56,366 nt of DNA from a virus. Lineage: Duplodnaviria; Caudoviricetes. The stretch spans positions 1 through 56,366 of IMG/VR virus record IMGVR_UViG_3300037840_000311, one strand, 5' to 3'. The notes below the pieces were generated by a model that saw only the letters and a program-made list of their open reading frames with translations, was not told the origin of the DNA and did not search any database. The position numbers and the translations under genes are program-made. Numbering within the stretch: position 1 is the stretch's first letter; every line of letters begins with the position of its first letter. This document shows, piece after piece, positions 14,451 through 56,240 of the stretch.

Positions 14451-14662
14451 CGTGGTTTGTCGTGAAACTCGTGTTCAATTTAGCTCTGTTCGTCAGCACT
14501 GGACTGGCAGGCATTCAGGCACTTCGTAACCACACGGATGCCGGATGGGTAGCGGGATTCGTGTTTTGCTCCTCAGGCAGTGCGCTGTTTGGTGCTGCTT
14601 TTTCGCGGCGACCGTTAATAGACGGGCCAGACCGATCCAAGCCGGAGGAGTTGCGCACATGA
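14447..14662 (+). CDS. Small membrane protein
   Basis: Two hydrophobic segments; coupled. Confidence 0.6.
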   Translation: MTWFVVKLVFNLALFVSTGLAGIQALRNHTDAGWVAGFVFCSSGSALFGAAFSRRPLIDGPDRSKPEELRT

Positions 14663-14943
14663 ACACCACTACGCGGACCTCCCACCGGAAACCTTCGCGC
14701 ACAGCCGCCATTCAACCTAAAAGCATTCTTTCAGAAGCGGCCCAAAAGACTTTCGACGCAGCCCTCAATAAAGCTTACGACCAAGGCGTATCAGATTGTG
14801 AAAACGGCACCCGAGATCATCCCCCTTATGGGTTCTCAGATTTACAACAAGCATGGAGATTAGGATGGTTAGCAGCGAAGCAGCGTAAAGATGGTTTGGG
14901 CTCAACAGCGCAACAAGGTCTGAAGAGAACAGGAGCGCGGTAG
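14659..14943 (+). CDS. Hypothetical protein ending through a left half-site
   Basis: AYDQG...WRLGW; GGAG RBS. Confidence 0.6.
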   Translation: MNTTTRTSHRKPSRTAAIQPKSILSEAAQKTFDAALNKAYDQGVSDCENGTRDHPPYGFSDLQQAWRLGWLAAKQRKDGLGSTAQQGLKRTGAR

Positions 14944-14944
14944 C
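14895..14944 (+). repeat. Left half-site
   Basis: TTTGGGCTCAACAGCG...GGAGCGCGGTAGC. Confidence 0.85.
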
Positions 14945-14945
14945 G

Positions 14946-15326
14946 ATGGGAAAACCAAGCGTTCCATTGGACGAGGCCACCTTCTGGAATCGCCACTACC
15001 TGTGGATTGAAAAGCAACTTATCAATGCTCGCGCCGTCGTAACGGGATTGGAGCGGGAATTGGATATCGCCGTTGACCGATTGGCTGAAATAGGATGTCC
15101 AAATCCTAAAGCGCTCTGCCGACTGTGCGGACATCGGGCCGAAGTCCACTTGACGGAATATGGCATAGATCGCGGTTGTTTTATTCTGAACTGCCCGTGC
15201 GTGCAATTTATGAACGCCGATGTAGCGGACGATGCAGCCAACGAGCGGCTACCCCGTCCCAACACCGAGACAGCCTCCATTCAACAACCCAAACGGGAAG
15301 AAAGCATTCCCCGAATTATCCCATGA
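14946..15326 (+). CDS. Hypothetical protein (Cys-rich C-terminal half)
   Basis: CRLCGH...C...CPC. Confidence 0.6.
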   Translation: MGKPSVPLDEATFWNRHYLWIEKQLINARAVVTGLERELDIAVDRLAEIGCPNPKALCRLCGHRAEVHLTEYGIDRGCFILNCPCVQFMNADVADDAANERLPRPNTETASIQQPKREESIPRIIP

Positions 15327-15553
15327 CCCCCACCCGCTTACGTCAAATCGCCGACCGCATGGAACGAGTCTGCTCTAATTACCAAGAGTTGATAGGCGTA
15401 GGATACAAAGCCTGCCGATCCTGCCAGGATGTGGCGGCGGAACTGCGAGTCTTCGCAGCTAAGTTTGACAAGGGCGAGCAGCCAAGGACCGGGCCAACGC
15501 CGCTGGAAGTGCGGGACCATTTACCGAAGCCGACAGGACCGGCAGCCGCATGA
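15323..15553 (+). CDS. Hypothetical protein
   Basis: ATGA coupling. Confidence 0.5.
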   Translation: MTPTRLRQIADRMERVCSNYQELIGVGYKACRSCQDVAAELRVFAAKFDKGEQPRTGPTPLEVRDHLPKPTGPAAA

Positions 15554-15697
15554 AACAGCGCAGCCAGAATTACCCTGACCTTCCGAGAACTAAAGCGGAG
15601 AAATACGAATTTATGCGCCAGCGGCAGCAACGCAAGAAACGACTGAAACGAGACAGCCGCAAAACTCCCGCGCACGTCAAAGCGGAGATGGATACCT

Positions 15698-16018
15698 CTA
15701 CATCTTAGAATTAGACGGCGGCAACATCGTGGCGCCCACGATACCGCTCGACATCTGAGAGTAGGCGCGCAAGCTCAATTGCATCTCTTCAAGGTTCACT
15801 AATTCCTGATTGATCTTGGCCGTTAGGTAGTTATGGATGGCGGTTTGCACTGGCTGCTGTTTATCTTCGTCTCGAAAGTTGAAATGCTTTGCGATGACAT
15901 CGACGGCACAGGTCCGCATCTTACTCAGCGAATCGATCTCCAACATCTTCGCATCGACCCGCTTTTTAATATTCGATATCGCGTGTTCCAATTGCTGCTT
16001 GCTCAATTGTGGGCTCAT
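15698..16018 (-). CDS. Hypothetical protein
   Basis: Last gene of a coupled leftward operon. Confidence 0.65.
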   Translation of the reverse strand: MSPQLSKQQLEHAISNIKKRVDAKMLEIDSLSKMRTCAVDVIAKHFNFRDEDKQQPVQTAIHNYLTAKINQELVNLEEMQLSLRAYSQMSSGIVGATMLPPSNSKM

Positions 16019-16410
16019 ACGATTGGTGTCACGTCGATGGTTTCGCCTTCGGAATCTTCGCTACCCTCGTCATCGTCACCCGATTCATCGCTATCGAAAT
16101 CCGTTGGAACCAATTTAACGACAGGACCAGCGAGCGGCTTAACCGTGGGGAAATCGGTAATGTCGTAGATTGGGACGCTGTTGCAAGGCATCGAAATATG
16201 CAACGGGTCCGGGTCTTCGGCGACAAACTTCTCGGCCGCGGTGAGTTGCGTTTCCGATCCTCGCAAATATAGCCCGTACACTCGTCCATCGGCGGCAACC
16301 GCTGAGGAGACGCTACAGAATGGCTGTTCTGCCTGATAGCTCTCTTCACCATTCGATTCGAGGATGACTAAGAGAAAGTGTTGGTCTGAGAATTCTATAT
16401 GGAAGGTCAT
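16015..16410 (-). CDS. Acidic hypothetical protein
   Basis: Coupled; D/E-rich tail. Confidence 0.65.
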   Translation of the reverse strand: MTFHIEFSDQHFLLVILESNGEESYQAEQPFCSVSSAVAADGRVYGLYLRGSETQLTAAEKFVAEDPDPLHISMPCNSVPIYDITDFPTVKPLAGPVVKLVPTDFDSDESGDDDEGSEDSEGETIDVTPIV

Positions 16411-16679
16411 TGGAGATTCCTTTTTAGAGGTTGGCTATTGGGACTCGGCGCGGTTAAGGAGGACGGCGCGATGGCAGTGGTCACGGGTCCATCCAAGCCT
16501 AGTTCGTGGCATTCTTCGCATGGAATCGAAACCCGCTGATTAACGATTACATGGACGCGGTGACCGCATTCAAGTTTTAAATGATCCCCATCGGACAAGC
16601 GAACGCGGCTGACAACATTCCGATACGGCGGGAAGGATCGGAGTGGCAATCGAAATAACCAATTCCAAAAGCGTTTCAT
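16407..16679 (-). CDS. Hypothetical protein (LECGH...CEEC)
   Basis: Coupled ORF; zinc-ribbon-like. Confidence 0.55.
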   Translation of the reverse strand: MKRFWNWLFRLPLRSFPPYRNVVSRVRLSDGDHLKLECGHRVHVIVNQRVSIPCEECHELGLDGPVTTAIAPSSLTAPSPNSQPLKRNLQ

Positions 16680-17110
16680 TCCGGGGATCCTGGTAGAAAC
16701 CGGCAATTGGGGCAGCCTGCGGTTGCCGCTGTAGGTTTCACGGGCGGCTTGAACCCTTGCGCCACGGCTTTACCGGCAAGCTCTTCCCAGTACTTCAACA
16801 CGGCTGGCATGTCCGATTCTCGAATAAGGGAGTACGTTTTGCAATTCTGGCAAATCCACTCCCAGCCTGGCTCGGGCCGGAGAACGTAGGATACCTCTTG
16901 ATCGGCCTTAATTGGCTCGATTCGTTCCACGCGGCTGAAGACTCGACCGCTGCGCGTCATGTTGCGCCAGTGCTTTCCCCAGCGCGTTTTCCCCGCTGCC
17001 GTTTTCGCCTTTAGACGGGCGGCGCTTTCTCGCTTGTCTTGACGGAGCGCTTTTTGAATCGGGTCTAGCTTGGCGGGACGAGCGCGGAACTTCCGGGCAG
17101 TTCTTGTCAC
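16676..17110 (-). CDS. Basic hypothetical protein with CxxC pairs
   Basis: Coupled ORF. Confidence 0.6.
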   Translation of the reverse strand: MTRTARKFRARPAKLDPIQKALRQDKRESAARLKAKTAAGKTRWGKHWRNMTRSGRVFSRVERIEPIKADQEVSYVLRPEPGWEWICQNCKTYSLIRESDMPAVLKYWEELAGKAVAQGFKPPVKPTAATAGCPNCRFLPGSPE

Positions 17111-17484
17111 AGGCCCAAGTCCTCACGGTTGACGAAAGCTCCCCGGCGTTCCACCTGCCCGGCGTAAGCGGCTTGCTCACGCTCTTTTCGTCGCTCTCTC
17201 TTTTCGGCTGCGATGCAATCGGGACACCGATGGTTCGGCCCTTCGCGGTCTTCTGTGCTCCATCCGAAATGCGCGGCGGCTTCATTACCTTCGTCCTTGC
17301 TTGAAAACCATGCAATGTCCTCAGCGGTGACTTTTGCTAGGGGCTCCGGGATGCCTTGAGCGTTCATGCGCATTCCAGCCAGGGGCTTTCCATCTGGGGC
17401 CATCATGCGATAACATCCGCAACACATGACTCCGAGTCCTCTCAACTTTGGGAGTGGTGGGGGTTGCGGGAGATTGGAGCTCAT
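17107..17484 (-). CDS. Hypothetical protein with CxxC pairs
   Basis: CCGC ... CPDC. Confidence 0.65.
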   Translation of the reverse strand: MSSNLPQPPPLPKLRGLGVMCCGCYRMMAPDGKPLAGMRMNAQGIPEPLAKVTAEDIAWFSSKDEGNEAAAHFGWSTEDREGPNHRCPDCIAAEKRERRKEREQAAYAGQVERRGAFVNREDLGL

Positions 17485-17549
17485 GCGGCCTCCGCGCTAT
17501 CGAATGCCGGAAACCTTGACGGACTGGTGAACGGCGGTTTAACAATCAT
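17481..17549 (-). CDS. 22-aa linker ORF reading backwards through a solo right half-site
   Basis: MIVKPPFTSPSRFPAFDSAEAA; ATGA overlaps with both neighbours. Confidence 0.6.
   Translation of the reverse strand: MIVKPPFTSPSRFPAFDSAEAA
17489..17545 (+). repeat. Right half-site inside the leftward operon
   Basis: CCTCCGCGC...CCGGAAACCTT...CTGGTGAACGGCGGTTTA. Confidence 0.9.
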
Positions 17550-18274
17550 TCGTCTTCTCCAAGCACAGCCAGTACCGAGTGCTCTCCAATAATAAAGTAC
17601 GTTTCTCCATCTCCTAAATCGATTTGACGGTCGAAGCGTTGTACTGATGGGTGGTACCAGACTCGGTTTCCTACTTTGACGCTGAGTGGTATCAACTCAT
17701 CTTGACGGGCACGCCGAATCAACTCTTGATGCTTTTGAAATAAACGCAGGAAGAACTCCTCAGCATCATGCAGATCAGTCCTACCGCGCGGCGGTTCGAT
17801 ATGAAATTGCAAAGCATGCGCAAGCGCCTCAATCAGATCAGGCGATTTAGCCCGCCTCCCTGGCCCTACTGCTACTACTTCCGCTTCCACGAAGTTCAGC
17901 CCTGCTCCATTCTGCGGGATGATCCCCGTCGCGTTCTTCGGCAAGAGCGCTCGATTCGCTCGGAATACCAGATCCTTCAATGCTTCCTTGTCCGCATCCG
18001 TGAGGGGCATTCCGGTTAAGATGCGTTTCAGGCTCTCGGTGATGTCTTCGAACAGCCAGCGGTTGACGTATTGCAATTCTTCCGAGCCTGAGCCTGGGCC
18101 GTCGTCTTCTCCTTGGTGGGTGATTCGTTTTGCTGAGTCTGGGACTATGATGGAGCCTACTGATTCTGGTTGGATGAGGCGTATGATGATTTGATCGCCG
18201 AGGGGTCTGATGTTTTGAATACGGGCGGCACTGGCGCTGGAGAGTGGCGGGAGCGCGGCGGCGGTCTCGGTCAC
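17546..18274 (-). CDS. GroES/Cpn10-like co-chaperonin with two large insertions
   Basis: IRPLGDQIII, SIIVPDSAK, EVVAVGPG, PLSVKVGNRV, DGETYFIIGEHSVLAVL. Confidence 0.85.
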   Translation of the reverse strand: MTETAAALPPLSSASAARIQNIRPLGDQIIIRLIQPESVGSIIVPDSAKRITHQGEDDGPGSGSEELQYVNRWLFEDITESLKRILTGMPLTDADKEALKDLVFRANRALLPKNATGIIPQNGAGLNFVEAEVVAVGPGRRAKSPDLIEALAHALQFHIEPPRGRTDLHDAEEFFLRLFQKHQELIRRARQDELIPLSVKVGNRVWYHPSVQRFDRQIDLGDGETYFIIGEHSVLAVLGEDE

Positions 18275-18588
18275 TTTTGCACCTCACTGTCGGGAGTTTG
18301 CGGCAGCAGTTGGGATATCGACGTATTGGGGAGTTTATCTGCCACCATCCGCATGGCGTCTTTGAGTTGCTCCCCGAAGTCAGGGCGCTCGATTTCAGGC
18401 GGTTCTACTTCGTTTTCATCCATCCAATCGGCCCACACTGAAACCGCTTGGCGCGCGCGTTCCAACGCTTCCTCGGGAGATTTGTCCTGAGACAGGTACA
18501 TGCAGAACAGGCTCCAGGTTTCCTCAATGCGAAGATTGGCGCGCTGGGCGATTTTCAGGTGCTCTTGCTGTTCGGGTGTGAGATTCAT
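18271..18588 (-). CDS. Hypothetical protein
   Basis: GGAGG RBS, coupled. Confidence 0.7.
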   Translation of the reverse strand: MNLTPEQQEHLKIAQRANLRIEETWSLFCMYLSQDKSPEEALERARQAVSVWADWMDENEVEPPEIERPDFGEQLKDAMRMVADKLPNTSISQLLPQTPDSEVQK

Positions 18589-19100
18589 GCGGCCTCCATC
18601 GCTCGCTGAATTTCAGATAGCCATCCTTGTGCACGCTTTAGATTGCCTTCCAACTGGGGCCGCGTGTATTGAGCCAGGAACTCGCCGGAGCCTTCCGGTA
18701 ATTCGTCCAGCGCTTCAAGGGTGGCTTGGCATTGCTCCACGTCTCGCTGCGCTCGCTCCATGTCTTCGAGCGTTGGAACCTGACGGGGTACAGCCTCGGC
18801 ATGGGCGATACGTTCCAACTGCTCGGCTATTTCGCTTCCGAGTAGGAATTCGATGGCGGCGCAAATATCGGCCACGCCTTCGGGACGCTGAGCACTCAGG
18901 TGTGCATGTAATCCTCGCGAAAGTTGCTGAATGGCTTCTTGCTTGCGCTTCAAGCGTTCAATCCATCGCGGATCAGGTCCGCATGGTGGAAGCCGGTATG
19001 CGGGAATAAAGTCGCCGCGCCCTGATGAGTCTGGAGCGGGCGGTACTGGTGAAGCCAAACCATCATCCATTTTGTTTCTCCTGCTCTGCCATGATTGCAT
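18585..19100 (-). CDS. Helical hypothetical protein (start uncertain)
   Basis: Coupled ORF; coiled-coil pattern. Confidence 0.6.
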   Translation of the reverse strand: MQSWQSRRNKMDDGLASPVPPAPDSSGRGDFIPAYRLPPCGPDPRWIERLKRKQEAIQQLSRGLHAHLSAQRPEGVADICAAIEFLLGSEIAEQLERIAHAEAVPRQVPTLEDMERAQRDVEQCQATLEALDELPEGSGEFLAQYTRPQLEGNLKRAQGWLSEIQRAMEAA

Positions 19101-20805
19101 CGTAATTGAAAAACTCTACCAGAAATTGCCCAAAGGTCGAAAGCGGCGCTACCTTCTCCCAAAGCTTCGCGGTCTCCGGGCCTCTGCCAGGATGATTCAA
19201 AAGATTGCCTAGATTCGCCTTGAACGTCTCGAAATCATAAACCCCAGGCGACGTTTCTCCAAGAGACCGGATCATGTCGTATGCTGGACGGCGCTTCGTC
19301 TTGAGCACAATCTCGGCGAATTGCACACCGGTATCCCCATCATCGATACAGTTTGAGATCGTCTCGGCGGCCTTCTCCAAAGTTGTCAACATGAGGATAA
19401 GCCGGGCTTGCTGCGCTTGCTGCTCGGGCGTCAAGGGCGGGCCTTGTGGCTGAATCGGTTTACCGGGCTCGGGCGGGTTCTGCACGGCGGGAGGTTTCGG
19501 TTGCTCTCCGTTCTTCAGCAAAGCGTTATTGTACGCTACACTCTGCCAGGTTTGTAGCCCAAAGTGTATCGTCTGGAAAATCCCTTGCACGAAACTTTGC
19601 ACGATCGGACCCACGATGGGAGCGGCTTCGAGCCATTTGTCGATGTTCGCCGGCTTCTCTACTTCTTCGGTTGCGCCTCCGCGGCCAGTGAGTTGCTTGA
19701 GAAGGTTTTGTTTCTTTACCATCTCTTCCAAGACATCGACATCGGTACGAGGGGCGGGAACGGTTGCCGCGGCGGGCGGCGGCGCATCGGCTTTCTTGCG
19801 AAGATCGGCCAAAACCTCGGCCTGTAAATCGTCGGCGCGTTTTCGTTCGGCTTTTGCCGATTCTCGGGCGGCTTCGCGTTCGGCGGCCTCCTGAGCACGG
19901 CGCGTCTCTTCGCGGGCGGCTTCCAACTTCAGATAATCCGAGAGCGAATTGTCCGGGTTCGGCTTCACTGCATTAACCAGCGAAACGATTACGCCTCCCA
20001 TCGCTTCCAGGTCGGTAGTGGGGCGAACGGGCTCGATCGGTTTAGCGGCTTGAGCTCGGGCTAATGCTTCCTTGGCGTCCCTCGCTTCACGTTCGGCTTT
20101 CTCCGTCGCTTCTTTTTGTAACTGATCGGCGCGGGCGCGTTCCAGTCGCGCGTCATTCATCACGGTTTCGACTACATTGGCTTGAGCCATGTCGGCTTGT
20201 TCCTTTTCGGTATCCCGATCCTGCGGGAGTTTGCCTCTCGATTGCGCCCACTTGATGAAAACTCGATTCGCATCGTCATCCCAATCTAGCCGCTTATAAT
20301 CAAGCCAGGGCGGGTACACGTCCCAGTTCCGCATCGTGGAGAGTTTCTCTCCATGGACGACGGTAGCCTGATCCCATGGGCGGCGGGAGTCGTTCAGGCG
20401 AAACGTATAATCCCCCACGCCGATATCGGATAGCAGTTTTTTTTCATCCAGCGGGCCGTCCTCTTTGGTATACTTTTTTTCGCTGGGATGAGATTCACGA
20501 GTCAATCCGCTTTTCGCATCTTCGATCTCTTCAGGCAGGAGTACGGGGAACCATCGGCGGACGTAGATTCTGGCGTACTTGGAAACCGGTTGCTGAATCA
20601 AGTCGTTCCAGTAAGCGCAGAATTTTGGAAAGGGCAGAGTCTTAGAATCAGGGACGGGGAATGGGGTGCGGCTGATAATTGCGTCTTGCTCGCGTTGCGC
20701 GACAATGGCATCCCTGCCGCCTGTGCGGTCCCAGTCGTAGTGCTCAGTGGTTTTCAGGTCGATTCCATTGACCGGGGCGGGTTCCGGCGCGGGCTGGGTC
20801 TCCAT
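19063..20805 (-). CDS. Large protein with central coiled coil and a hydrophobic segment
   Basis: 580-aa ORF divergent from the protease gene. Confidence 0.85.
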   Translation of the reverse strand: METQPAPEPAPVNGIDLKTTEHYDWDRTGGRDAIVAQREQDAIISRTPFPVPDSKTLPFPKFCAYWNDLIQQPVSKYARIYVRRWFPVLLPEEIEDAKSGLTRESHPSEKKYTKEDGPLDEKKLLSDIGVGDYTFRLNDSRRPWDQATVVHGEKLSTMRNWDVYPPWLDYKRLDWDDDANRVFIKWAQSRGKLPQDRDTEKEQADMAQANVVETVMNDARLERARADQLQKEATEKAEREARDAKEALARAQAAKPIEPVRPTTDLEAMGGVIVSLVNAVKPNPDNSLSDYLKLEAAREETRRAQEAAEREAARESAKAERKRADDLQAEVLADLRKKADAPPPAAATVPAPRTDVDVLEEMVKKQNLLKQLTGRGGATEEVEKPANIDKWLEAAPIVGPIVQSFVQGIFQTIHFGLQTWQSVAYNNALLKNGEQPKPPAVQNPPEPGKPIQPQGPPLTPEQQAQQARLILMLTTLEKAAETISNCIDDGDTGVQFAEIVLKTKRRPAYDMIRSLGETSPGVYDFETFKANLGNLLNHPGRGPETAKLWEKVAPLSTFGQFLVEFFNYDAIMAEQEKQNG

Positions 20806-21021
20806 AGTGGAGTTTTCGGGATTTTGAGGCTGCTCGGGCTTGGGTTTTGCGGAGCGTTTCGGCTTCTTTTTCTCGGGTGTCGAGACTTCTGGCGTGATGG
20901 AAATCGGCGTAAACCTCCCGCTGAGAGCTATACCTAGTGGTGCTCAGTAGCACAATACCACAACTGCCCCATATATATAAATACTCCACTTTGCAACGGC
21001 TTGCGGAAAGTCTAGGATTAG

Positions 21022-21696
21022 GTGCGAACAATTGTGAACCTCAGAGCCTACCACCCGGAGCTTGGAGAGCAGGTCTACGGCGTCCATTTGCTGTCAGACG
21101 ACCCGGATACCCAGGTAGCGCAGACCATCCACCGCATGGCTCAGAACGTCCGGGAGGACGCGAAGTCAGCTCCTATCCTTAATGAAGCGGCGGCGATTCA
21201 AGCTTTAGGCTCAGGGGATCCGGTCTCCGATACCTTCTGGCACGTCAAGAATCGGGTAGGCTTCCGGCAGGATGAGCAATTGGCGGCTCCGGTTCTGCCA
21301 TTGCTTCAGCAATACGATCCTGGCGCGAGCGTGGTTGAAGTCCTTGTACGGCCGCGGGACCTGGCGCAGATGCCGAACCCGATGGAAGACTGCGACGGTT
21401 TTGCATCCTACATGCCGGCATTGCTTCGAGCTCAGGGCGTGAAGTGCAACTTCGTCACGGTCGCGGCCGATGGGCGGGATACGTCGCGATTCTCCCACGT
21501 GTACGCAGCTTGCTATCCGAATGGGCAGCGAGTTTCCTTGGATGCTTCGCACGGACCTTACCCGGGATGGGAATGTTTAAGCGCTGGACCTGTCTGGAGA
21601 ATTAAAGAGTGGGATATCGATGCTGTGGACTGGGGTCAGGTTGTTCTGTGGGGACTGTTTTTATTTGCAGCCGGTAAGTTGATGGGGATTTTATGA
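21022..21696 (+). CDS. Transglutaminase-like (Cys-His-Asp) protease, putative maturation protease
   Basis: EDCDG ... FSHVY ... SLDAS; C-terminal TM; first gene of the late region. Confidence 0.8.
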   Translation: MRTIVNLRAYHPELGEQVYGVHLLSDDPDTQVAQTIHRMAQNVREDAKSAPILNEAAAIQALGSGDPVSDTFWHVKNRVGFRQDEQLAAPVLPLLQQYDPGASVVEVLVRPRDLAQMPNPMEDCDGFASYMPALLRAQGVKCNFVTVAADGRDTSRFSHVYAACYPNGQRVSLDASHGPYPGWECLSAGPVWRIKEWDIDAVDWGQVVLWGLFLFAAGKLMGIL

Positions 21697-21896
21697 AGCG
21701 GCTTTTTGGTTGGGCTCTTCTGTGTTGGCGACTCCATGCAAGCTTGCGCGCGGCGAGAATCGCGATCGGTGAGGCGGGGCGTCAACCAATTAGAATCCGG
21801 CCCGCGGTTCGACTTCCCCGGTTTCAGGGCGCCCACATGCCGGAAGCCTTCATTGAACAGGTGAACGGCGGTTTATCCAAAAGGACCCACGCGTGA
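21693..21896 (+). CDS. Linker ORF over a left/right element with ~70-nt filler
   Basis: MKRLFGWAL...VNGGLS; 4-nt overlaps at both ends. Confidence 0.55.
   Translation: MKRLFGWALLCWRLHASLRAARIAIGEAGRQPIRIRPAVRLPRFQGAHMPEAFIEQVNGGLSKRTHA
21703..21882. repeat. Left+right element with short insert
   Basis: TTGGGCTC...GCGCGG and ...CAGGTGAACGGCGGTTTATCCAAAA. Confidence 0.85.
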
Positions 21897-22249
21897 GAGT
21901 TGATACCCCATTCCCGGATCGTCCACTCATGCCACCCTTAACCGGAGGAATGGGAGACTTCACACTCTCCAACGGTCAAGCGTGCGATCCAGGGCTCATG
22001 GGGCCAGTGCTCTGCCAGGATACCACGGTGAGAATCATCAACGCGATCGCGGCTGGTACAGCAACGGCGGCGCAGATCGCGGCCGGCAACAGTCTGGGAG
22101 TATCCAGCGCGAATTGTCCACTGGGCACGATCTACAATCCCGCAACACTGAGTTGTCAGCCAGGCGTTACAGCGACGGCTTCTGCAAACAGCGGAATGAT
22201 TCTCCTGTTGATAGCCGGGGCGGTTGTGTACTTCATGATGAGGCGATGA
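21893..22249 (+). CDS. Tail-anchored putative virion membrane protein
   Basis: TGGMGD motif; C-terminal TM then MMRR. Confidence 0.75.
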   Translation: MRVDTPFPDRPLMPPLTGGMGDFTLSNGQACDPGLMGPVLCQDTTVRIINAIAAGTATAAQIAAGNSLGVSSANCPLGTIYNPATLSCQPGVTATASANSGMILLLIAGAVVYFMMRR

Positions 22250-35756: not shown

Positions 35757-36596
35757 ATGAAGATGCTTTTTGTTTGGGCTCAACTGTCGATCACGCTCTG
35801 TGCTTGCCAGGGCGCGGGGGAAGTCTACTCGATCAATTCTCCGCGCTCATTATTCTCAGCGGGCGTGTGGGGCTTGCCGTCAATCATTGTCGCGCCCAGC
35901 CATCGTTTACCCTTGCGTGATTTTGTGAGGGCATCTACAAGCGCTGGAGTAGGCTCGACCGATGGCGGGAGCGGCCTACTGGGAGCAATGGGAATCATGC
36001 GAGGCGAGGAATCGGCACGAGGCGGGGGATCGGCACGGCGCAACCCCGTCGCGATTTCATGTAGAATCTGTTCCTCAGCGGCGCGGCATTCCTTTGGAGT
36101 AATCGGCAGCAACTTCCAGCGGCGCACCATTTCTAGTCGGCGAGTTGTCAAGTCCATGGTTTTCCAATCGAGCGGCCAGCGCGTCAAGTTTTGCGTGCAA
36201 CCCCTGAACAATCACCCTGTCTCGCTCAATCTGGCGATTCTGCGACATCATGATGAGCGGGCTTTGGAATGTGCTCACGATGGTCAACACCAGATTGAAC
36301 AGGATAAATGGGTACGGATCAAAGATACCTGTCAAAACCAGGACCGTGTTCAGGATGATCCAACCGGCAGTGAGCGCCGAAAATACGGCGATGAACGTCC
36401 AGGAGCCGCAGAATTCCGTCACGGCATCAGCGGCCCGTTGCGACCTTGTGAGTTGCGGCGGCTTATTGTCCATGCGCCTATCCTAGCGGTCCAGCACGGT
36501 CCCGCGCAACCGGCCCCAGCGCTCCCAGTAGTACGAATCGGCGCGACTGGTGAACGGCGGTTTATCCCTGATCTTCCAAGGAGCCTCTCTCTATGA
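35757..36596 (+). CDS. 279-aa linker ORF over two antisense cargo genes
   Basis: MKMLFVWAQ start through the left site; stop overlaps ATG 36593. Confidence 0.45.
   Translation: MKMLFVWAQLSITLCACQGAGEVYSINSPRSLFSAGVWGLPSIIVAPSHRLPLRDFVRASTSAGVGSTDGGSGLLGAMGIMRGEESARGGGSARRNPVAISCRICSSAARHSFGVIGSNFQRRTISSRRVVKSMVFQSSGQRVKFCVQPLNNHPVSLNLAILRHHDERALECAHDGQHQIEQDKWVRIKDTCQNQDRVQDDPTGSERRKYGDERPGAAEFRHGISGPLRPCELRRLIVHAPILAVQHGPAQPAPALPVVRIGATGERRFIPDLPRSLSL
35825..36157 (-). CDS. Antisense cargo, hypothetical protein
   Basis: Stops at the inner edge of the left site. Confidence 0.5.
   Translation of the reverse strand: MDLTTRRLEMVRRWKLLPITPKECRAAEEQILHEIATGLRRADPPPRADSSPRMIPIAPSRPLPPSVEPTPALVDALTKSRKGKRWLGATMIDGKPHTPAENNERGELIE
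36075..36473 (-). CDS. DUF1003-family membrane protein (antisense cargo)
   Basis: GSWTFI...W...N...FDPYPFILFNL...Q.PLIMMSQNRQ.ERDR. Confidence 0.9.
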   Translation of the reverse strand: MDNKPPQLTRSQRAADAVTEFCGSWTFIAVFSALTAGWIILNTVLVLTGIFDPYPFILFNLVLTIVSTFQSPLIMMSQNRQIERDRVIVQGLHAKLDALAARLENHGLDNSPTRNGAPLEVAADYSKGMPRR

Positions 36597-37157: not shown

Positions 37158-37622
37158 ATGAACCAACCCATCTTCAACCAGTGGGCTCCACCCCTTCTCA
37201 ACGGATTCAACGCAACCTCTCCTGACGGTTGTGAAGACGTAGACGCGGGGTACGTCTGGCCCCAATCGAACGGCTTCCAAACCCTCGCACCGGGAGAGCA
37301 GCGCGAAGTTACGATCATTCTGGAAGGGGGAGACGATTTCCTATTCAAGAGTTTCATCTGGGCCTTGAAACCAAGCGAAGAATTCCCCAATCTAGGGTTT
37401 CTCTATCGAATCCAGGACGACGCCGGCAAGTTCATCAGCGATGGATTCGTGTACTGCTACGCGACCCCAGGAACGCTCGCTAACCCATGGCCGATGTTTC
37501 CGCATATCACCTACGCGGCGCATCAGAGAATCGTGTTCGAGATTATCAATCTCGACCCGGCGAACAGCCAGGGATTTCAAATCATGTTCCGCGGATGCAA
37601 GAGGTTCAGGAGGGTAGGGTGA
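37158..37622 (+). CDS. Capsid-like paralog B (single unit)
   Basis: GDDFLF...IQDDAG.FIS...ITYAAHQRI...FRGCKRF. Confidence 0.75.
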   Translation: MNQPIFNQWAPPLLNGFNATSPDGCEDVDAGYVWPQSNGFQTLAPGEQREVTIILEGGDDFLFKSFIWALKPSEEFPNLGFLYRIQDDAGKFISDGFVYCYATPGTLANPWPMFPHITYAAHQRIVFEIINLDPANSQGFQIMFRGCKRFRRVG

Positions 37623-38509
37623 GCCTAAAACAGACTTTCGGTGGTTGGGCTCTGCTTTTCTGTACGTTTATTGCTGGCGGGAGCGCGGGGGCCTTTCTTT
37701 TCGATCCGTGCTGGCGGCTGGACCGGCGCGGGGATATCGAAGGTCATCAAGCGATGTTCTCGCACGCAGCGGGCAACCAGTTCGCCGGTGAACAGAAATA
37801 CCTGATCCATCTGCCCGTTCCCATGAAGTTCGGGCCGGAATTCGATACGGCGACCATCAGTCAAATCCAGAAGTCCGCCCTGGAGACGAACCCAGATAGA
37901 CGGGTTACCATATTTCGCAGGCGCTTGCATATCGGCGGCCATTTCCGGGCAGATCACCGAGAATGTAGCGGTTTCACCCTTCGGCCCTTTGACCTCGAAC
38001 AGGTCTCCGATCCGTACTTCGACCTCTCCGTATTCGTCGCGCAGGATCATGGGTCACTTGGCCTTGTTGCGCGGCAATGGAAAACCACAATACCAATCAG
38101 GCAAATAGCCCATGAGCTTCGGACGCCACAAGAGCCGATAGACAAACCGGGCGAAATTAAACAGGTGCGGATACTGCCAGATTCGATATTTCACGCGACT
38201 TTCAACCTCCTCATCACCGCTTTCCGGTACCGCCAATTGTACAATTTCCAAAACCAGTTTATCAGCATCGCTTTTTTCTCCTACCTTAGAGACGCGCAGA
38301 CAAGTACCAGCGTGACACGTTTCAGGACTATTTCTTCACCTAGGCCGTTGGTTCTACGCACCTACGCGGATGAGACCTTAGGTTTGGGGTCGACGGTGCG
38401 GGCGGCTCGGAATGGCCAGCGCGCGGCGGCTGTCTCCGCGCTTCCACCGGCCGGGAACCTTGTCCCGCTGGTGAACGGCGGTTTATCCCAAAGAGGCCCG
38501 CATGCGTAA
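37619..38509 (+). CDS. 296-aa linker ORF over two antisense genes and an empty element
   Basis: GTGA start overlap; stop overlaps the start of 38502. Confidence 0.45.
   Translation: MSLKQTFGGWALLFCTFIAGGSAGAFLFDPCWRLDRRGDIEGHQAMFSHAAGNQFAGEQKYLIHLPVPMKFGPEFDTATISQIQKSALETNPDRRVTIFRRRLHIGGHFRADHRECSGFTLRPFDLEQVSDPYFDLSVFVAQDHGSLGLVARQWKTTIPIRQIAHELRTPQEPIDKPGEIKQVRILPDSIFHATFNLLITAFRYRQLYNFQNQFISIAFFSYLRDAQTSTSVTRFRTISSPRPLVLRTYADETLGLGSTVRAARNGQRAAAVSALPPAGNLVPLVNGGLSQRGPHA
37625..38050 (-). CDS. Antisense cargo, hypothetical protein
   Basis: Globular-looking; ends through left site 37643-37692. Confidence 0.65.
   Translation of the reverse strand: MILRDEYGEVEVRIGDLFEVKGPKGETATFSVICPEMAADMQAPAKYGNPSIWVRLQGGLLDLTDGRRIEFRPELHGNGQMDQVFLFTGELVARCVREHRLMTFDIPAPVQPPARIEKKGPRAPASNKRTEKQSPTTESLF
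38054..38251 (-). CDS. Antisense cargo, small protein (start uncertain)
   Basis: Abuts 37625..38050. Confidence 0.45.
   Translation of the reverse strand: MEIVQLAVPESGDEEVESRVKYRIWQYPHLFNFARFVYRLLWRPKLMGYLPDWYCGFPLPRNKAK
38382..38492. repeat. Empty element (left + CGGCTGTCT + right)
   Basis: TTTGGG...CCCAAA closure; centre identical to the 27401 copy. Confidence 0.92.
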
Positions 38510-40371: not shown

Positions 40372-40565
40372 CCACCGCGCGGCAAATCATGCAAGAATTC
40401 CGCGACGATGAATACTGGGAGAATTGCGAACCATTCCGCGCTCACCGTTTCGCTGAATATAAATCCCTGTGCGCTGACCTAGGATTGTTGACAGCCACCG
40501 CGCGCCCGCAAGCCGGAAACCTTCGCCCGCTGGTGAACGGCGGTTTACCCCAGATGGTACGATGA
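40368..40565 (+). CDS. Small ORF ending through a right half-site
   Basis: ATGA coupling; ends VNGGLP. Confidence 0.5.
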   Translation: MTTARQIMQEFRDDEYWENCEPFRAHRFAEYKSLCADLGLLTATARPQAGNLRPLVNGGLPQMVR

Positions 40566-40569
40566 CCGC

Positions 40570-41736
40570 ATGAAGATACTCTTATCACTCCCGGAATCCC
40601 CCTTCGATCCAACCAACGGCGCCGCTCAATCCATGCGGACCATTGCGGAACTGATGGCGAAAGCGGGGCATCAGGTTCGATGCGTGGCGACGACAGCCAT
40701 GGAGAGACGGGGAACTCTCCCCGGAGTAGCGCCGTGGGGCCTGAACCATCGCGATGTAGTCTATAGTTTAGTGAACGTCGATGTAGCCTCTACGCAGAAC
40801 TGGCGCAACGAGGATAACGAAAAGACCTTCACCTGGGCCTTTACGCGGGAACTGGAAATCATCGGACCTCCAGACCTCTTGCTCTGCTACGGCGGCCACC
40901 CCACCGATGCAGCCCGCTACAATCGCGCGAAACGCGCCGGCGTCAAGATCGTCTTCGGACTCCGCAACTACGGCTATCAAAAGCGCGGTTTCTTCGACTT
41001 TTGCGACGGCGTAATCACCAGCTCGCAATTCCTGACCGACTGGTACAAAACCAAGTTCGGGATAGACTCGACTCCCCTGCCCTTACCGATCTGGCCCGAG
41101 GACGTCATCGCGGAAAAGCGAGACCCGATCTACTTCACAGCCATCAACCCGACACGGGAAAAGGGCTTGAGACTTTTGGAAACGGTCTGGCGACATTTGG
41201 GCGAGAAACGACCCGATATCCCGCTCATGGCCATTGACAGCAGCGATAGTCTACTGTGCGGATATTATCCGGCCATTGTGAAACCCTGGCAACCCAACCC
41301 GCGCGACATCTTCGCGCAAACGAAAGTGCTCCTCGTCCCCTCCGTTTGGGAAGAACCAGCTGGCCGCGTAATCGCCGAAGCGATGCTCAACGGAATCCCG
41401 CCAATCATCACCGACCGGGGAGGCATGCCGGAAGTGGCCAACGGCGGCGCCATCGTGATACCGCTGGACAAGCGAATCACGCCGGAGCGGACCCAGCCCG
41501 TACCGCTGAGCGTGGCCCAGCCGTGGATCGATGCGATTATCGAGTTACAGGACCATCCGGAATGCTACGCTACGCATGCGAGCACAGCGGAATATGCGGC
41601 ATCGATTTACGAAAACGTCACCCCCCTGTATGAGGACTATTTCGGGCGGATTCTGACCGGGACGCCAATTCCCGCGCGTCCGCATGCCCACATCGCGCCG
41701 TCTGACGAGGCCAACAACAAAGAGGCCACTGCATGA
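40570..41736 (+). CDS. GT-B (GT4-like) glycosyltransferase
   Basis: MKILL...GAAQS...GHQV; KG; LLVPSVWEEPAGRVIAEAMLNGIPPIITDRGGMPE. Confidence 0.92.
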   Translation: MKILLSLPESPFDPTNGAAQSMRTIAELMAKAGHQVRCVATTAMERRGTLPGVAPWGLNHRDVVYSLVNVDVASTQNWRNEDNEKTFTWAFTRELEIIGPPDLLLCYGGHPTDAARYNRAKRAGVKIVFGLRNYGYQKRGFFDFCDGVITSSQFLTDWYKTKFGIDSTPLPLPIWPEDVIAEKRDPIYFTAINPTREKGLRLLETVWRHLGEKRPDIPLMAIDSSDSLLCGYYPAIVKPWQPNPRDIFAQTKVLLVPSVWEEPAGRVIAEAMLNGIPPIITDRGGMPEVANGGAIVIPLDKRITPERTQPVPLSVAQPWIDAIIELQDHPECYATHASTAEYAASIYENVTPLYEDYFGRILTGTPIPARPHAHIAPSDEANNKEATA

Positions 41737-42792: not shown

Positions 42793-43350
42793 ATGCCTCT
42801 AGGACACCTCGGAACCTGCTCCTCAGACCTTCTCCAAGCAGAACAAAACATCAAGCGCTACACCAAAGACTACTGCGACATCATGAGCCAAAGGCCCCGG
42901 CCTCACGGTCTCCCGCCCTACATTCAACCTCCCAAGAACGCGGTACGCTGGCAACCGGGCAAGGACCAGCCGCTCGTCATCCCAGTCGGGCCGGAAACGG
43001 GATTCGACATCCTGGTATTCCAAGACCGCATCCCACCGGGCTATGACGGACTTCTCGTAGCGCTCACAAACATCTGGAATGGAACCGGCTTTGTGGAAGC
43101 GTCAGGAGACATCACCTGGCGCGTAAAGATAGATCAGCGATTCATCCCTTACTACGATACGATTCTCACCACGCTGGGGAGCCTGGCTGTGCCCTTCGAT
43201 ATCATCGGGCAAGGAATCCCGCTACTCTCCGGGCAACTCGTTCAGTACTTCGTGAACTTCGCCGTGGGATCGGATGCGCGATTGAATGCCGGAGGAATGA
43301 CGATTTGCGCGGCAACAGGATACGTCTGGCCGAGGGAGAGGTTAGCGTGA
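42793..43350 (+). CDS. Beta-rich putative structural protein
   Basis: RIPPGYDGLLVAL...ITWRVKID...GYVWP. Confidence 0.75.
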   Translation: MPLGHLGTCSSDLLQAEQNIKRYTKDYCDIMSQRPRPHGLPPYIQPPKNAVRWQPGKDQPLVIPVGPETGFDILVFQDRIPPGYDGLLVALTNIWNGTGFVEASGDITWRVKIDQRFIPYYDTILTTLGSLAVPFDIIGQGIPLLSGQLVQYFVNFAVGSDARLNAGGMTICAATGYVWPRERLA

Positions 43351-45077: not shown

Positions 45078-47014
45078 CTCTCCTCTTTCTTTTTTTGTCC
45101 TCAGCATTGGCGCAAGGACCGATTTTCGTGTCGGGGCGAAAAGCAGGTACGGTCACCGTCGTAGGTGGAGGAAACCTCACCAATAACGCGATCGTCACCG
45201 GAGGCGGGAGTCAGGCCGTGCAAACCCCCTCGCCCGGTTCCACCTTGGATTCGAGCGGCAATGAAGTTTTGGCCGGCAGCTTATCCACAGGCGGGGGAAC
45301 GGCCCCTGCGCTTCCGTCTGGCGCCGCAACCTGCGTATTTATGGGAACGACAAACTATGTCGCCTGGTGCATTCCTACGGGTCTCAGCGTCTCGCTTGGA
45401 CTTTTTTTCCCAAATACAACCCCTACCGCGAATCAATTCCTCTTGTGCGGAAACACTTCAGGTGGGATATCCTCCTGTGTCTGGACTACCTTTGCAGTGG
45501 CGAATTTGACCGGGGCGGCGAACAATACTCTACCCAAAGGAAACGGCACCGGGGGACTCGTCAGCTCCTCTATTACCGACGACGGAACGGTCATCAAAAC
45601 GGGCGAGAATCTAGACCTCCAGACCAATAGCCTGCTTGTCGAGCTTGCCAACTGCGCAGCCTCCTGCGGCCATGGTGGTACGGGAACGGTACTCAATAAG
45701 ATCGCCGTCCTGGTTGCCGTCAATCCAAGTACTGTAACCCTCGCGGGAACCGGAGACACCACAGGCGGATCGGGCATCGTGATCGGCGGGGCGGGAACAA
45801 CCGGCAATGCTCAGATCGCTCGAGAGGGGGAAGCCCTGTGCGTATTCGACGGGGCTACAACGGCCAGCGATTACGTGCAAATGAGCCCCACGGTAGCGGG
45901 AGATTGCCATGATGCCGGGGCCGCGGTTCCCGCTTCCGGGCAAATCTTCGGACGGGTCCTGAGCACCAACGGCGCTGGTGGTACCTACAACATGACCATC
46001 GCGCCTCCTCACTATGGAGGCGGGGCATCAGGGGGATTACTGGGCGATCCGGGATCAAACGGAGTCGTTATCCGAACCGCTCTGAACACGACCACAGCCC
46101 GCACTATCACCGGAACGTCCCCAATCACGGTGACCAACGGAGACGGCACGGCAGGAAATCCCACCATCGCCTGCGCGACGTGCGCGCCTCTCAATAGCCC
46201 GACCTTCACCGGAACGCCAGCAGCCCCCACGCAAACAGCCGGAGACAACACCACGGCTCTTGCTACCGATGCCTTCGTGACCACAGCTATAAACAACGCC
46301 ATCGCCGGCGTGAACCCCGCTGTAGCGGTTCTGGCGGCAAGCACGGCCAACGTGGTAGGCACCTACAGCAATGGCGTGGCGGGAGTCGGAGCGACCTTCA
46401 CAGTCACGGCAACCGGGGCCTTCAGCCTGGATGGAGTGGCCATCAATACCATCGGCCAGCGAGTACTGCTCAAAAATCAGAGCACGGCCTTTCAGAACGG
46501 CATCTACACGGCAACAATTGTAGGCGCCGTGGCGGTTTCGCCCGTCTTCACACGCGCGCTCGATTACGACCAACCTTCGGACATCAATAGCACCGGAGCA
46601 ATCCCAGTTCAGAGCGGCACGGTGAACGCGCTCACAAGCTGGCTGCTCACCTCGACGGTGAATACTGTCGGAACGGATGCGTTGACTTATGCGCAGTTTT
46701 CAATCAGTCCAACCGTGACAACCCAACTCATCGCAACCGGCTCAACGGCGTTCGCAACGGCCTCAATCCCTGGCAATTCGTGCGCCACAACCATCACCGT
46801 CGCAGCAACCGGAGCGACCGTGGCCACCGATCGTATCACCTGGACTCCGAATGCGGATATCAGCGGCGTGACAGGATACGGCGTGCTTTCGACGGACGGC
46901 CTGAAGGTCTATAGTTGGCTCACGGCGGGCAATATCAATTTTCACGTGTGCAACGGAACCGGCACAGCGATCGTTCCAGGAGCGGTTACCGCTGTCTGGG
47001 GAGTGACACGATGA
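45059..47014 (+). CDS. Signal-peptide-bearing fibre-like protein
   Basis: MDRRKLALLFLFLSSALA-Q; APLNSPTFTGTPAAPT...LATDAFV fibre motif; RVLLKNQ...QNGIY domain. Confidence 0.85.
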   Translation: MDRRKLALLFLFLSSALAQGPIFVSGRKAGTVTVVGGGNLTNNAIVTGGGSQAVQTPSPGSTLDSSGNEVLAGSLSTGGGTAPALPSGAATCVFMGTTNYVAWCIPTGLSVSLGLFFPNTTPTANQFLLCGNTSGGISSCVWTTFAVANLTGAANNTLPKGNGTGGLVSSSITDDGTVIKTGENLDLQTNSLLVELANCAASCGHGGTGTVLNKIAVLVAVNPSTVTLAGTGDTTGGSGIVIGGAGTTGNAQIAREGEALCVFDGATTASDYVQMSPTVAGDCHDAGAAVPASGQIFGRVLSTNGAGGTYNMTIAPPHYGGGASGGLLGDPGSNGVVIRTALNTTTARTITGTSPITVTNGDGTAGNPTIACATCAPLNSPTFTGTPAAPTQTAGDNTTALATDAFVTTAINNAIAGVNPAVAVLAASTANVVGTYSNGVAGVGATFTVTATGAFSLDGVAINTIGQRVLLKNQSTAFQNGIYTATIVGAVAVSPVFTRALDYDQPSDINSTGAIPVQSGTVNALTSWLLTSTVNTVGTDALTYAQFSISPTVTTQLIATGSTAFATASIPGNSCATTITVAATGATVATDRITWTPNADISGVTGYGVLSTDGLKVYSWLTAGNINFHVCNGTGTAIVPGAVTAVWGVTR

Positions 47015-47016
47015 CC

Positions 47017-47075
47017 GCCACCGCGCGCCCGCAAGCTGAACGCCTTCGAGCACTGGCGAACGGAGGTTTATCCCA
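47017..47075 (+). repeat. Solo right half-site covered by 22-aa linker ORF 47011..47079
   Basis: CCACCGCGCGCCCGCAAG...CTGGCGAACGGAGGTTTATCCC; ATGA overlaps at both ends. Confidence 0.92.
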
Positions 47076-49094
47076 ATGAATCCGTTTCTCGCTTGCCTCA
47101 TAGCTCTCTGGCACTCGCTCTGGTTCTCGCCTCAGTTGTATCCGTTTCCTGGGAATCCACCAGTTGGTTCGGCACCAATTACTCTCGACGCCTCTTGCAC
47201 TGGAATAGGCAGTGCTTTCACCACCCCATGTTCATCACCAATGACCGTGACTGCTGGCGACACAATAACCTGCGAAGGTGTTATCTCTGCTTTCTCCGGA
47301 GAGTTTGGCTGGTTCAATGATGCTACCAACAATGCAATTTACGATACCGTCTACGGAGGACTTAATGGGACCAGCACGAATAACTGGGTAATCAGCGCCG
47401 TATATCCCAATTCAGCGGGTGGCTCTATAACCCCACAGATAAACGGATGGCCTTCCGGAGCTACTTCGTTTTTACTTTTGGCCTGTCAGGCGTGGAAAGG
47501 GACTCGCAGCACTTTTGTAGTAGATCCAACTCCGATCTTATTTAATGCCGCAAACGCATCGAATCCTACGGCAGGAACGGCGGTGACTCCTACAAACATC
47601 AATGAATTGATTGTTTGTCAGCTATCGCGTGCATCGGCGGCCACCACTTCTGCCGGATCGGGATTCAGCCCTGCCGGGACACTGACAGCCGTTACAGAAA
47701 ATTTGAGCCAATACTTTCAGTATCAGATTCAGACTGCCGCGACCGCCGTGAATTGCCCCTACACGTCCGCTTCGGCACAGTATACCGATACTCAGTTCGC
47801 ACTTCTGAATGCCGTCAATCCGGCGGGATATAGACCGCTCGGTGGAATGTACGGCTTCCCTGCATCGGCTCAGACCAATGGTGCGACCGCCACGCTAGCA
47901 ATTCTGAATACATCCAACTCAGGCTCCATTTGGGCCACGCACGGAAATCCTACTAACGCACCGTGGACCCAGTATTCCGGCGCTACAGTAACTTTCGATA
48001 CCTCGGTGAACCCCACAGGCACCGGAAAGATCATGGTCAACGGAAAGACCCATACATTCGGCGATGCGGGCGGCAGTGTGGCATTTCCCAACGGCAATGC
48101 AAGTAAAAACGCCTATCTGTTCACAGATTTGTCAGCTAATCAAGGCACTCCGATGTGGCTGTCTTATTTCTTTCGGGCCGCATCTGCTGGAGCAACTGCA
48201 TCGACGGGCTGCGATACGGTAGATTTATCGGGGGGAATCGTGGAGGGGGGCGTGGATGTTCAAGCACAATACACCACCGGCGGAACTCCTTTAGGATTTT
48301 TCATTGAACCCGCTGAAGGCGGTCATTCACCGGCCATAAGCGGGTTCAGCGCAGACACAGACTACTGGATACAGATTCACTCGGCGGGGGTAAATGAGCG
48401 ATACCACCAGGTGCTTGTGTCCAGCAAATCCGGTGGGGTATGGTCGTTATCAAGTACATTGAATTTCGACGCGCTGTGTGCAGCCCAAGGCGGCACTAAC
48501 TGCACGACGCCAGCTACGGTTGCCACGGGTTCAGGAACAGTGTCTTCAGGATCGAACTCTCTGGTACTCACGGGAGTAACCGGGACGGTATCGGTCGGCA
48601 ACGTCGTACTTGCCGCGTCGGGGAGCGCCATTCCCTATATCACGACAGTAGCGGCCTCGACGGTTTCGGCGGGTTCGGGAACGGTCACACTCTCTCAAAA
48701 CGCCGCCTCTCCCTTAAGCGCGGCGACCGTCAATTTCATAGCCAAGCCTGCCAATTTAATCGCAGCGACAACCGGGACAGTTTCAGCCGGTTCCACCGCA
48801 ATGACCATAGTAGTGCCGGGATCTGGGACCGTCGCTGTCGGGCAAGCGATCGGGAGCACAGATGGCAACATTCAGATGGGCACTGTAGTCGCCGCCGTAT
48901 CGGGCACCTCTGTCACACTTAACCAGGCTCCGGCCATCGCCGAATCTAGTGGCGTGTCATTTTGGAGAACATCACCAGGCTTGCCTAACTTTCCAATTGG
49001 AACATGGTCGTCTTGTGCGTTTACGAACACGCTTTGGTATAGCGGGGTAGTGTGGGACCCGTTAGGAACTTGGGGCCAGTTTGAGCCGAACTAA
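47076..49094 (+). CDS. Large beta-rich putative receptor-binding protein
   Basis: Hydrophobic N-terminus; Ser/Thr/Gly-rich; duplicated C-terminal module (GTVS.GS...V.VG...VTL.Q). Confidence 0.8.
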   Translation: MNPFLACLIALWHSLWFSPQLYPFPGNPPVGSAPITLDASCTGIGSAFTTPCSSPMTVTAGDTITCEGVISAFSGEFGWFNDATNNAIYDTVYGGLNGTSTNNWVISAVYPNSAGGSITPQINGWPSGATSFLLLACQAWKGTRSTFVVDPTPILFNAANASNPTAGTAVTPTNINELIVCQLSRASAATTSAGSGFSPAGTLTAVTENLSQYFQYQIQTAATAVNCPYTSASAQYTDTQFALLNAVNPAGYRPLGGMYGFPASAQTNGATATLAILNTSNSGSIWATHGNPTNAPWTQYSGATVTFDTSVNPTGTGKIMVNGKTHTFGDAGGSVAFPNGNASKNAYLFTDLSANQGTPMWLSYFFRAASAGATASTGCDTVDLSGGIVEGGVDVQAQYTTGGTPLGFFIEPAEGGHSPAISGFSADTDYWIQIHSAGVNERYHQVLVSSKSGGVWSLSSTLNFDALCAAQGGTNCTTPATVATGSGTVSSGSNSLVLTGVTGTVSVGNVVLAASGSAIPYITTVAASTVSAGSGTVTLSQNAASPLSAATVNFIAKPANLIAATTGTVSAGSTAMTIVVPGSGTVAVGQAIGSTDGNIQMGTVVAAVSGTSVTLNQAPAIAESSGVSFWRTSPGLPNFPIGTWSSCAFTNTLWYSGVVWDPLGTWGQFEPN

Positions 49095-55733: not shown

Positions 55734-56240
55734 ATGAAACTACGAATCTTCCCTATCGGTGTTTTGATCCTGATATTGCTACTGGCAGCCTGCCAGACCT
55801 CAACCATCATCGCCAGCCTCGAGGCCGCCGTCTCAGCGGCTGAAATCGCCATACCGGTAATCGGGGCAGCGACCGGCCTGAACGCGCAGACCTCCGCGCT
55901 GATCGTGGCCTATCTCCAACAGGTGAACGTCGCGACCGCGGAAGCGGCTACCATCCTCGCAAACACCAGCCTGACGAGCGCGCAGAAGACAGCGCAGATC
56001 GTCAAGGCGTTCGCAGCGATCGCGGCGGGATGCAACTGTATTCCACCAGGGACTCCGCAGGAAGTGGTAGCCGTGGTGAACGCGGTAGCCCAAGCTGTCC
56101 TGAACTTCCTGACCAACTTCCAGCCCGCCCCCGCGCCCCCGCCAGTCGTAAAGGTCAGCACGGCCGATGCCCAAAAACTAGCAAGCCTCAGAACCCGGAG
56201 CGAGGCTAATATCACGAAACTGAAAGGAGTCAAAAAGTGA
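55734..56240 (+). CDS. Putative lipoprotein
   Basis: Lipobox LAAC after a hydrophobic signal. Confidence 0.75.
   Translation: MKLRIFPIGVLILILLLAACQTSTIIASLEAAVSAAEIAIPVIGAATGLNAQTSALIVAYLQQVNVATAEAATILANTSLTSAQKTAQIVKAFAAIAAGCNCIPPGTPQEVVAVVNAVAQAVLNFLTNFQPAPAPPPVVKVSTADAQKLASLRTRSEANITKLKGVKK

Follow-up and report, generated by a model that had tools for sequence, protein, structure and literature searches.

The 69 nucleotides at the junction between a GroES-like gene and the next gene of a leftward phage operon are exactly filled by a 22-codon open reading frame, which crosses a reversed copy of a repeat of about 63 nt that we call R. This bridge arrangement is real and non-accidental. We give about an even chance to the reading, drawn from sequence comparison, that R is a translated intercistronic linker bounding small, shuffled accessory-gene cassettes, with the mini-ORF serving as a translational bridge. 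R's anatomy, its recurrence in relatives, its mosaic copies and the differing cassette contents at conserved junctions are all directly observed.

The window (the whole stretch of 56,366 nucleotides that was analysed) is the complete 56-kb genome of a soil phage, with a direct terminal repeat of 127 nt at 1–127 and 56240–56366. Its plus strand carries most of the genes, and leftward blocks run from 20805 to 15698 and from about 1981 to 753. Nearly all of its proteins are without a family match; those with one include DnaB, a helicase-methylase, tail-fibre-like proteins, DUF5131, a papain-like protease and the GroES-like protein. PHROG scans of 10 structural-region proteins gave 0 matches, blastn of 8 kb against a phage database gave no match, and no close relatives of the GroES-like and portal-like proteins were found in viral contigs. 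A scan of the window for tRNA and tmRNA genes returned none, and Rfam covariance models run over the whole window had 0 matches at the gathering threshold. The features of the junction and of its mirror case are as follows.

17107–17484, minus strand: 125-aa accessory gene, downstream of the bridge ORF; 119 homologues at E ≤ 1e-3.
17481–17549, minus strand: 22-codon bridge ORF with an ATGA overlap at each end; translation MIVKPPFTSPSRFPAFDSAEAA, then stop.
17488–17550, plus strand: R copy, reversed relative to the leftward operon; nhmmer E 8.7e-18, model positions 2–64.
17489–17497, plus strand: block A of R (CCWCCGCGC); its first five bases are GGAGG on the minus strand, 4 nt upstream of the ATG at 17484.
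17524–17541, plus strand: block C of R, the near-invariant core; 18-mer core with 0 mismatches.
17546–18274, minus strand: GroES-like (Cpn10) gene, 242 aa; Pfam PF00166, E 6.7e-12, residues 190–237; PHROG GroES phrog_3188, residues 21–55.
17557–17560, minus strand: GGAG, a possible Shine-Dalgarno sequence 7 nt upstream of the mini-ORF's ATG, within the last GroES-like codons.
47011–47079, plus strand: forward 22-codon bridge ORF (the mirror case), ATGA at both ends; translation MTATARPQAERLRALANGGLSQ, then stop; crosses the R copy at 47017–47081.

The bridge ORF begins in TCAT at 17546–17549, the ATGA shared with the stop of the GroES-like gene, and it stops in TCAT at 17481–17484, the ATGA shared with the start of the 125-aa gene. 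The sequence and the ORF list thus confirm what the initial annotation had said of this junction, namely that a minus-strand 22-aa ORF exactly fills the 69 nt with ATGA at both ends; the site that it had placed on the plus strand in the leftward operon proves to be a full R copy, and the mirror linker that it had noticed at 47011–47079 is real. Both genes that flank the bridge ORF are supported by homology. Many homologues of the 125-aa gene start near query residue 15–19, which makes ATG 17427 an alternative start; the gene has no homologue in G002, G003 or L013, the relatives described below. Its protein is a member of a wide family of 90–140 aa whose core is repeated 2–11 times in giant proteins of 742–5488 aa. 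About 135 inserted residues separate the Cpn10 halves of the GroES-like protein (residues 21–55 and 190–237); in G003 the homologous open frame is of ordinary size, 124 aa. Across the R copy at 17488–17550 only one frame is open on each strand. Since ATGA overlaps are frequent in this genome (a crude gene list has them at 19 of 76 same-strand junctions), the double ATGA alone is only mildly unlikely; it is the replicate in L013, together with the other reversed copies, that makes a chance origin of the arrangement implausible.

R is present in 14 copies in the window by nhmmer profile (13 on the plus strand and 1 on the minus strand, one of the copies partial), and its 18-mer core pattern has 13 matches there against 0.06 expected. 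An alignment of 25 copies from the window and its relatives resolves three blocks: A, a looser B, and a nearly invariant C with the pattern CTGGYGAACGGMGGTTTA and then YCC. Block C holds an imperfect 6-4-6 inverted repeat, and the exact pattern occurs in 3 copies against 0.06 expected. Conservation of R is block-like, without a three-base periodicity. The next start codon lies 3–40 nt downstream of forward R copies, with several ATGs just 3–4 nt after block C. GGAGG is found in 3 of the 14 window copies; the majority form in block C is GGCGG, a poor Shine-Dalgarno sequence, and many genes downstream of R have an AAGGAG of their own, so that function as a ribosome binding site does not account for the near-invariance of block C. 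The layout of GGAGG and start codon seen at 17489 recurs at window 25279, at two L013 copies and at two G003 copies.

Three further observations concern short motifs. The block A motif CCWCCGCGC also stands alone, outside R, at 1010, 1453 and 2975 on the minus strand and at 4261, 6046, 32168, 40372, 51419, 55389 and 55891 on the plus strand, and its matches total 17 against 2.5 expected. At 40562–40573 a micro-ORF of three codons packs two ATGA overlaps into 12 nt and joins the ORF that crosses R at 40494–40559 to the gene at 40570–41736; the letters are identical in L055. Finally, two known motifs were set aside: an ops/RfaH-like reading of GGCGGT, for which no NusG paralogue was found and which shares 6 bases only, and an integron attC core site, whose consensus was not seen by eye.

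A search of viral contigs for R's 18-mer found one related contig, L010, and the same search in 185,579 species genomes gave 10 chance-level matches, none of which extends past the 18-mer, with no clue to a host or prophage. A 16-mer scan of metagenome contigs gave mostly chance single matches (120 loci); a profile screen of the loci from both scans identified true elements in L010 and eight metagenome contigs. Following a cargo-gene family identified two further complete genomes, the relatives G002 and G003, both of which have terminal repeats. As far as such matches tell, R is restricted to relatives of this phage among the sequences searched.

Reversed R copies number six in four phages: one at window 17488, two in L013, two in G003 and one in G002. 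All six are read through on the operon strand in one shared frame at block C (..KPPF/KPPL..). Four finish in an ATGA or GTGA that overlaps the next start, the other two belong to longer fused ORFs whose own end is an ATGA, and in five GGAGG lies 2–9 nt ahead of a start codon. The orthologous junction is present in L013, where a pair of reversed R copies comes after the GroES-like C-terminus. The second of these (435–503) sits in a 22-codon ORF, MRDKPPFTRPERFPAMKCAEAK and then stop, with ATGA overlaps on both sides; the first, read in that frame as well, runs on into the next ORF. The genes after each L013 R copy have no homologue in the window, and downstream of the R copies stands a homologue (54% amino acid identity) of the window gene at 16676–17110 on the minus strand. 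R itself is 78–80% identical in nucleotides between L013 and the window, at least as much as the best-aligning patches of the flanking gene. In the portal operon of G003 the reversed copy forms the C-terminal tail of the upstream ORF and ends in GTGA, with GGAGG 4 nt before the GTG; the second G003 reversed copy has an ATGA overlap at its end, and that of G002 is fused in frame on both sides. Three of the six are without ATGA on the block C side (L013 copy 1, G003 28789 and G002 4989), where the frame continues from the upstream ORF. Reversed copies are thus scarce, in part share descent, and represent about three independent events.

A second repeat, L, begins with an ATG or GTG that overlaps the preceding gene's stop, and its inner part is complementary to the block A–B part of R. 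A cis hairpin between L and R was considered and rejected: cognate pairs rank in the middle or at the bottom among all pairs, no better than non-cognate ones. The 41-aa L+R ORF has no protein homologues. Several R copies are mosaics. The right flanks of L010 and L056 are 90% identical and their left parts 49%, and the left part of L056 is 84% identical to a different window R copy. Gene content between the GroES-like gene and the 144-aa gene differs between the window and L013. The cargo families of 141 aa and 63 aa are found at different junctions in the window, in G002 and in G003 (loci L145–L150 in the latter two), and in all three complete genomes these cargo genes are antisense to their neighbours. 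Assembled contigs of two DNA runs showed no genuine alternative junctions, the joints found there being repeat cross-matches; it is the mosaics that suggest recombination at R. Two of the antisense cargo genes lie inside long plus-strand ORFs.

36075–36473, minus strand: DUF1003 gene (E 3.4e-24) inside a long plus-strand ORF (35757–36596).
37625–38050, minus strand: 141-aa-family gene (15 full-length homologues) inside a long plus-strand ORF (37487–38509).

These long, codon-aligned plus-strand ORFs run from an L element to an R element and span both minus-strand cargo genes. Among the 273 codons of the DUF1003 and 141-aa genes, 0 are TTA, CTA or TCA, compared with a rate of 2.07% for 22 confident genes (P 0.003), and the frame antisense to the cargo genes is open in relatives too. 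On the minus strand of G003, at 1762–463, a homologue of the window gene at 42793–43350 runs for more than 400 codons across antisense cargo to the next R; thus a bridge frame can be fused to a real gene.

The orientation of R relative to transcription was tabulated for all full-length copies with an assignable operon strand (n = 40). Left out of this census were the L111 copy, whose operon strand is unassignable, and the partial copies (window 36544, three in G002, three in G003 and one in L051).

Window: 12 co-oriented, 1 reversed.
G002: 7 co-oriented, 1 reversed.
G003: 6 co-oriented, 2 reversed.
Other loci: 9 co-oriented, 2 reversed.

Overall, 34 of 40 copies are co-oriented with their operon and 6 are reversed (p 8e-6 against 50:50, with copies that are not all independent). 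The portal/GroES operon has 3 co-oriented and 4 reversed copies, against 31 and 2 elsewhere (Fisher p 0.005, again with non-independent copies). The initial annotation had held that site orientation is independent of transcription, and the census contradicts this, orientation being mixed only in the portal/GroES operon. R orientation is biased toward transcription and is clearly not obligatory. The mixture in this minority-strand operon would fit a second pressure, for example one that keeps copies parallel along the genome.

These counts bear on the idea that R, mainly through block C, is a double-stranded DNA binding site for a regulator or a stoperator-like road-block, and that the ORFs are accommodations to it. 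We consider this unlikely. The inverted repeat in block C is what a dimeric binder would be expected to recognize, and conservation in blocks without codon periodicity, tolerance of either orientation and lack of an RNA fold signal (below) all agree with a DNA site. Co-orientation of 34 copies in 40 would, however, be unneeded for a symmetric site, although asymmetric stoperators, as described in PMC9283540, do show such a bias. Moreover, no repressor-like or other DNA-binding protein was found among the proteins scanned (a weak point, as most of these are without any family match), and binding alone leaves the mosaic copies and the shuffling of cassettes unexplained. The DNA-level function favoured in the initial annotation gains from the lack of an RNA-structure signal, the pseudo-palindromic core and the mosaic copies, and stays a proposal.

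When eight R or L+R stretches were folded as RNA and compared with shuffles, z ranged from −1.85 to +0.81 with most values near 0, and the small hairpin in block C shows no compensation, its substitutions leaving bases unpaired. RNA structure for R is not supported. A scan of 14500–22000 found no sigma-70-like promoter or terminator-like site at 17488–17550, where the host's promoter type may differ, and searches of the genome for the sigma-70 r2 and r4, T7-type RNA polymerase and NusG families found none (the polymerase search having no positive control). These results weigh against a promoter or attenuator for the downstream rightward gene of the kind represented by the promoter-early stem-loop motifs (PeSLs) of T4-type phages (Arbiol et al. 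2010, PMC2839356), in which case the reversed copy would either fire antisense into the GroES-like gene or be inert. Forward copies do lie a short way (3–40 nt) upstream of the next start codon, and R borders variable small genes as PeSLs do (PMC2839356), but R folds no better than shuffles, and an ATG 3–4 nt after block C in several forward copies allows no leader. We regard a PeSL-like role as improbable.

By our script an operon-strand ORF crosses R and is followed by a coupled start in 28 of the 40 copies, coupling being defined as a stop within 30 nt of the R end and the start of an ORF of at least 37 aa that overlaps this stop or lies no more than 7 nt from it. Of the other 12, one lies within a longer ORF and 11 fall short of this definition (window 677, window 50490 and G002 2033 among them); on inspection by eye, a pair of these 11 (38432 and L091 3042) look like overlaps slightly beyond the range that the script searched. 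Translation across R thus appears to be common, not universal. In the three GroES-junction copies, differences fall on codon positions as 6/2/5, 5/4/7 and 2/3/2, with no third-position excess, and in the other reversed copies the peptides diverge after KPPF. There is no sign of amino-acid-level selection on the bridge peptide. The forward and reversed 22-codon ORFs have the same ATGA-to-ATGA period of 65 nt (window 17481/17546, window 47011/47076 and L013 435/500), and their offset to the conserved core differs by 1 nt. The R consensus is seemingly open in 5 of 6 frames (by eye), so openness is cheap; the kept feature is the register of start and stop. The 1-nt difference in offset, together with the three copies that are without one ATGA, fits selection for register and does not fit insertion with fixed ends. 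The claim in the initial annotation that coupling is imposed separately from the site is accordingly supported by the 1-nt shift, by the translated-through frames of all six reversed copies and by the lack of a codon-position signal.

Two other explanations were also considered. If R were a MITE-like element inserted into an ATGA overlap, with duplication of the ATGA, the "perfect coupling" would be a target-site duplication, and the 65-nt period at three sites is what this would produce. The offsets from ATGA to the blocks nevertheless differ by 1 nt between forward and reversed copies, an ATGA on the block C side is missing from half of the reversed copies, a Pfam scan of 49 window proteins turned up no transposase or recombinase, and the 18-mer core occurs at chance level only in the 185,579 species genomes; we judge such an origin very improbable. 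That the 22-aa product is a functional micro-protein hardly merits credence: its equal length and similar sequence in L013 and the KPPF kept in reversed copies speak for it, but the shared residues are the translation of nucleotide-conserved blocks, third-position excess is absent, other reversed copies diverge wholly after KPPF and are fused to different proteins, and forward copies encode an unrelated peptide.

Under the translated-linker reading, a Shine-Dalgarno-like pentamer would face outward at each end of R, GGMGG in block C and GGAGG from the complement of block A, so that R could feed the next gene in either orientation. At 17488–17550 the complement of block A would supply GGAGG 4 nt ahead of the ATG of the 125-aa gene. 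The 22-codon ORF would span the 61-nt spacer, and ribosomes ending at the GroES-like stop would restart, cross R and end on the next ATGA. The ORF would be retained for the act of translation (coupling, or the avoidance of polarity) and not for its peptide, and R may also serve as a homology patch for recombination. Among the points that weigh against this reading are the 11 of 40 copies that the script scores as uncoupled and the possibility that the 125-aa gene starts at ATG 17427.

A broader view, which we put forward tentatively and consider less likely than not, is that the lineage runs a system of cassette exchange in which R and L linkers admit small genes in either orientation and each insertion is "translationally transparent". 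Short bridge ORFs would cross solo or sense-oriented linkers, and long codon-aligned antisense ORFs would cross antisense cargo that avoids TTA, CTA and TCA codons. Ribosomes would then never leave the operon mRNA, escaping for example Rho-type polarity, and the copy at 17488 would be the minimal example. If confirmed, this would offer an example, open to test, of selection that keeps translation continuous across inserted DNA, and a model for swapping accessory genes between phages without breaking operons. Annotation is affected as well: bridge ORFs and antisense shadow ORFs will be mistaken for proteins by gene-finding programs, and six such "proteins" of 258–361 aa are already in public sets.

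Phage junction repeats such as PeSLs, SAS and stoperators are already known, and their roles are mostly unsettled. What R adds is a repeat that occurs in both orientations and is commonly stitched into what would be the translation chain, so that a nucleotide-level core is separated from an imposed translational continuity. Rickettsia palindromic elements (RPEs), which insert within genes of a bacterial chromosome, are covered in a review of in-frame MITEs (PMC10969869); as described there, RPEs and in-frame MITEs resemble R in being repeats that survive in translated sequence because they are open in the frame used. R differs in lying at gene boundaries with stop-start overlaps and in one phage lineage only, and neither of the transposition signatures looked for, a target duplication at a fixed offset and a transposase gene, was seen in its ATGA flanks or among the proteins scanned. 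In Cluster A mycobacteriophages, stoperators are 13-mers to which a known repressor binds, and function is lost when a site is reversed (PMC9283540). Like R as described here, they are asymmetric sites present in many copies in short junctions, with an orientation that tracks transcription; they act at the DNA level, as R putatively does. R differs from them in being five times longer and putatively translated, and in having no repressor-like family among the proteins scanned.

Among known elements R comes closest to PeSLs and SAS/ESAS, and it belongs to neither. PeSLs have been proposed as homology patches for the insertion, deletion and replacement of cassettes (PMC2839356). As that paper describes them, PeSLs and R are both conserved junction motifs of about 60–100 nt that flank variable ORFans and have a Shine-Dalgarno sequence and start codon at the 3' side; for R we infer the recombination by which it would mediate shuffling. 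A PeSL is, however, an untranslated intergenic unit of promoter plus terminator, and R has neither signal: a sigma-70-like −35/−10 promoter and a stable stem-loop were not found in it. R is also unlike the PeSLs described there in being read through by ORFs, in occurring in both orientations and in having many cassettes antisense to the operon, and the two have no sequence similarity. Excised mini-circles are a further PeSL trait; for R, the joints in the assembled contigs of the two DNA runs were repeat cross-matches. The start-associated sequences (SAS/ESAS) of Cluster K mycobacteriophages (Pope et al. 2011, PMC3203893) are shorter, SAS being 13 bp and ESAS adding 17-bp inverted repeats, compared with about 63 nt in three blocks for R. 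The SAS consensus of 13 bp carries AGGAG and lies 3–7 bp before the start, whereas R has a different sequence and a start 3–40 nt away. Unlike SAS/ESAS as reported, R mostly has GGCGG, is crossed by ORFs, and has reversed copies integrated through a GGAGG on the other strand. R and SAS/ESAS are nevertheless alike, on the published description, in being asymmetric repeats with a Shine-Dalgarno core a few bases before start codons, in being conserved across subclusters in front of unrelated genes, and in having a near-uniform orientation with single reversed copies, which for R means 13 of 14 copies on one strand in the window and the 34 of 40 co-oriented copies of the census.
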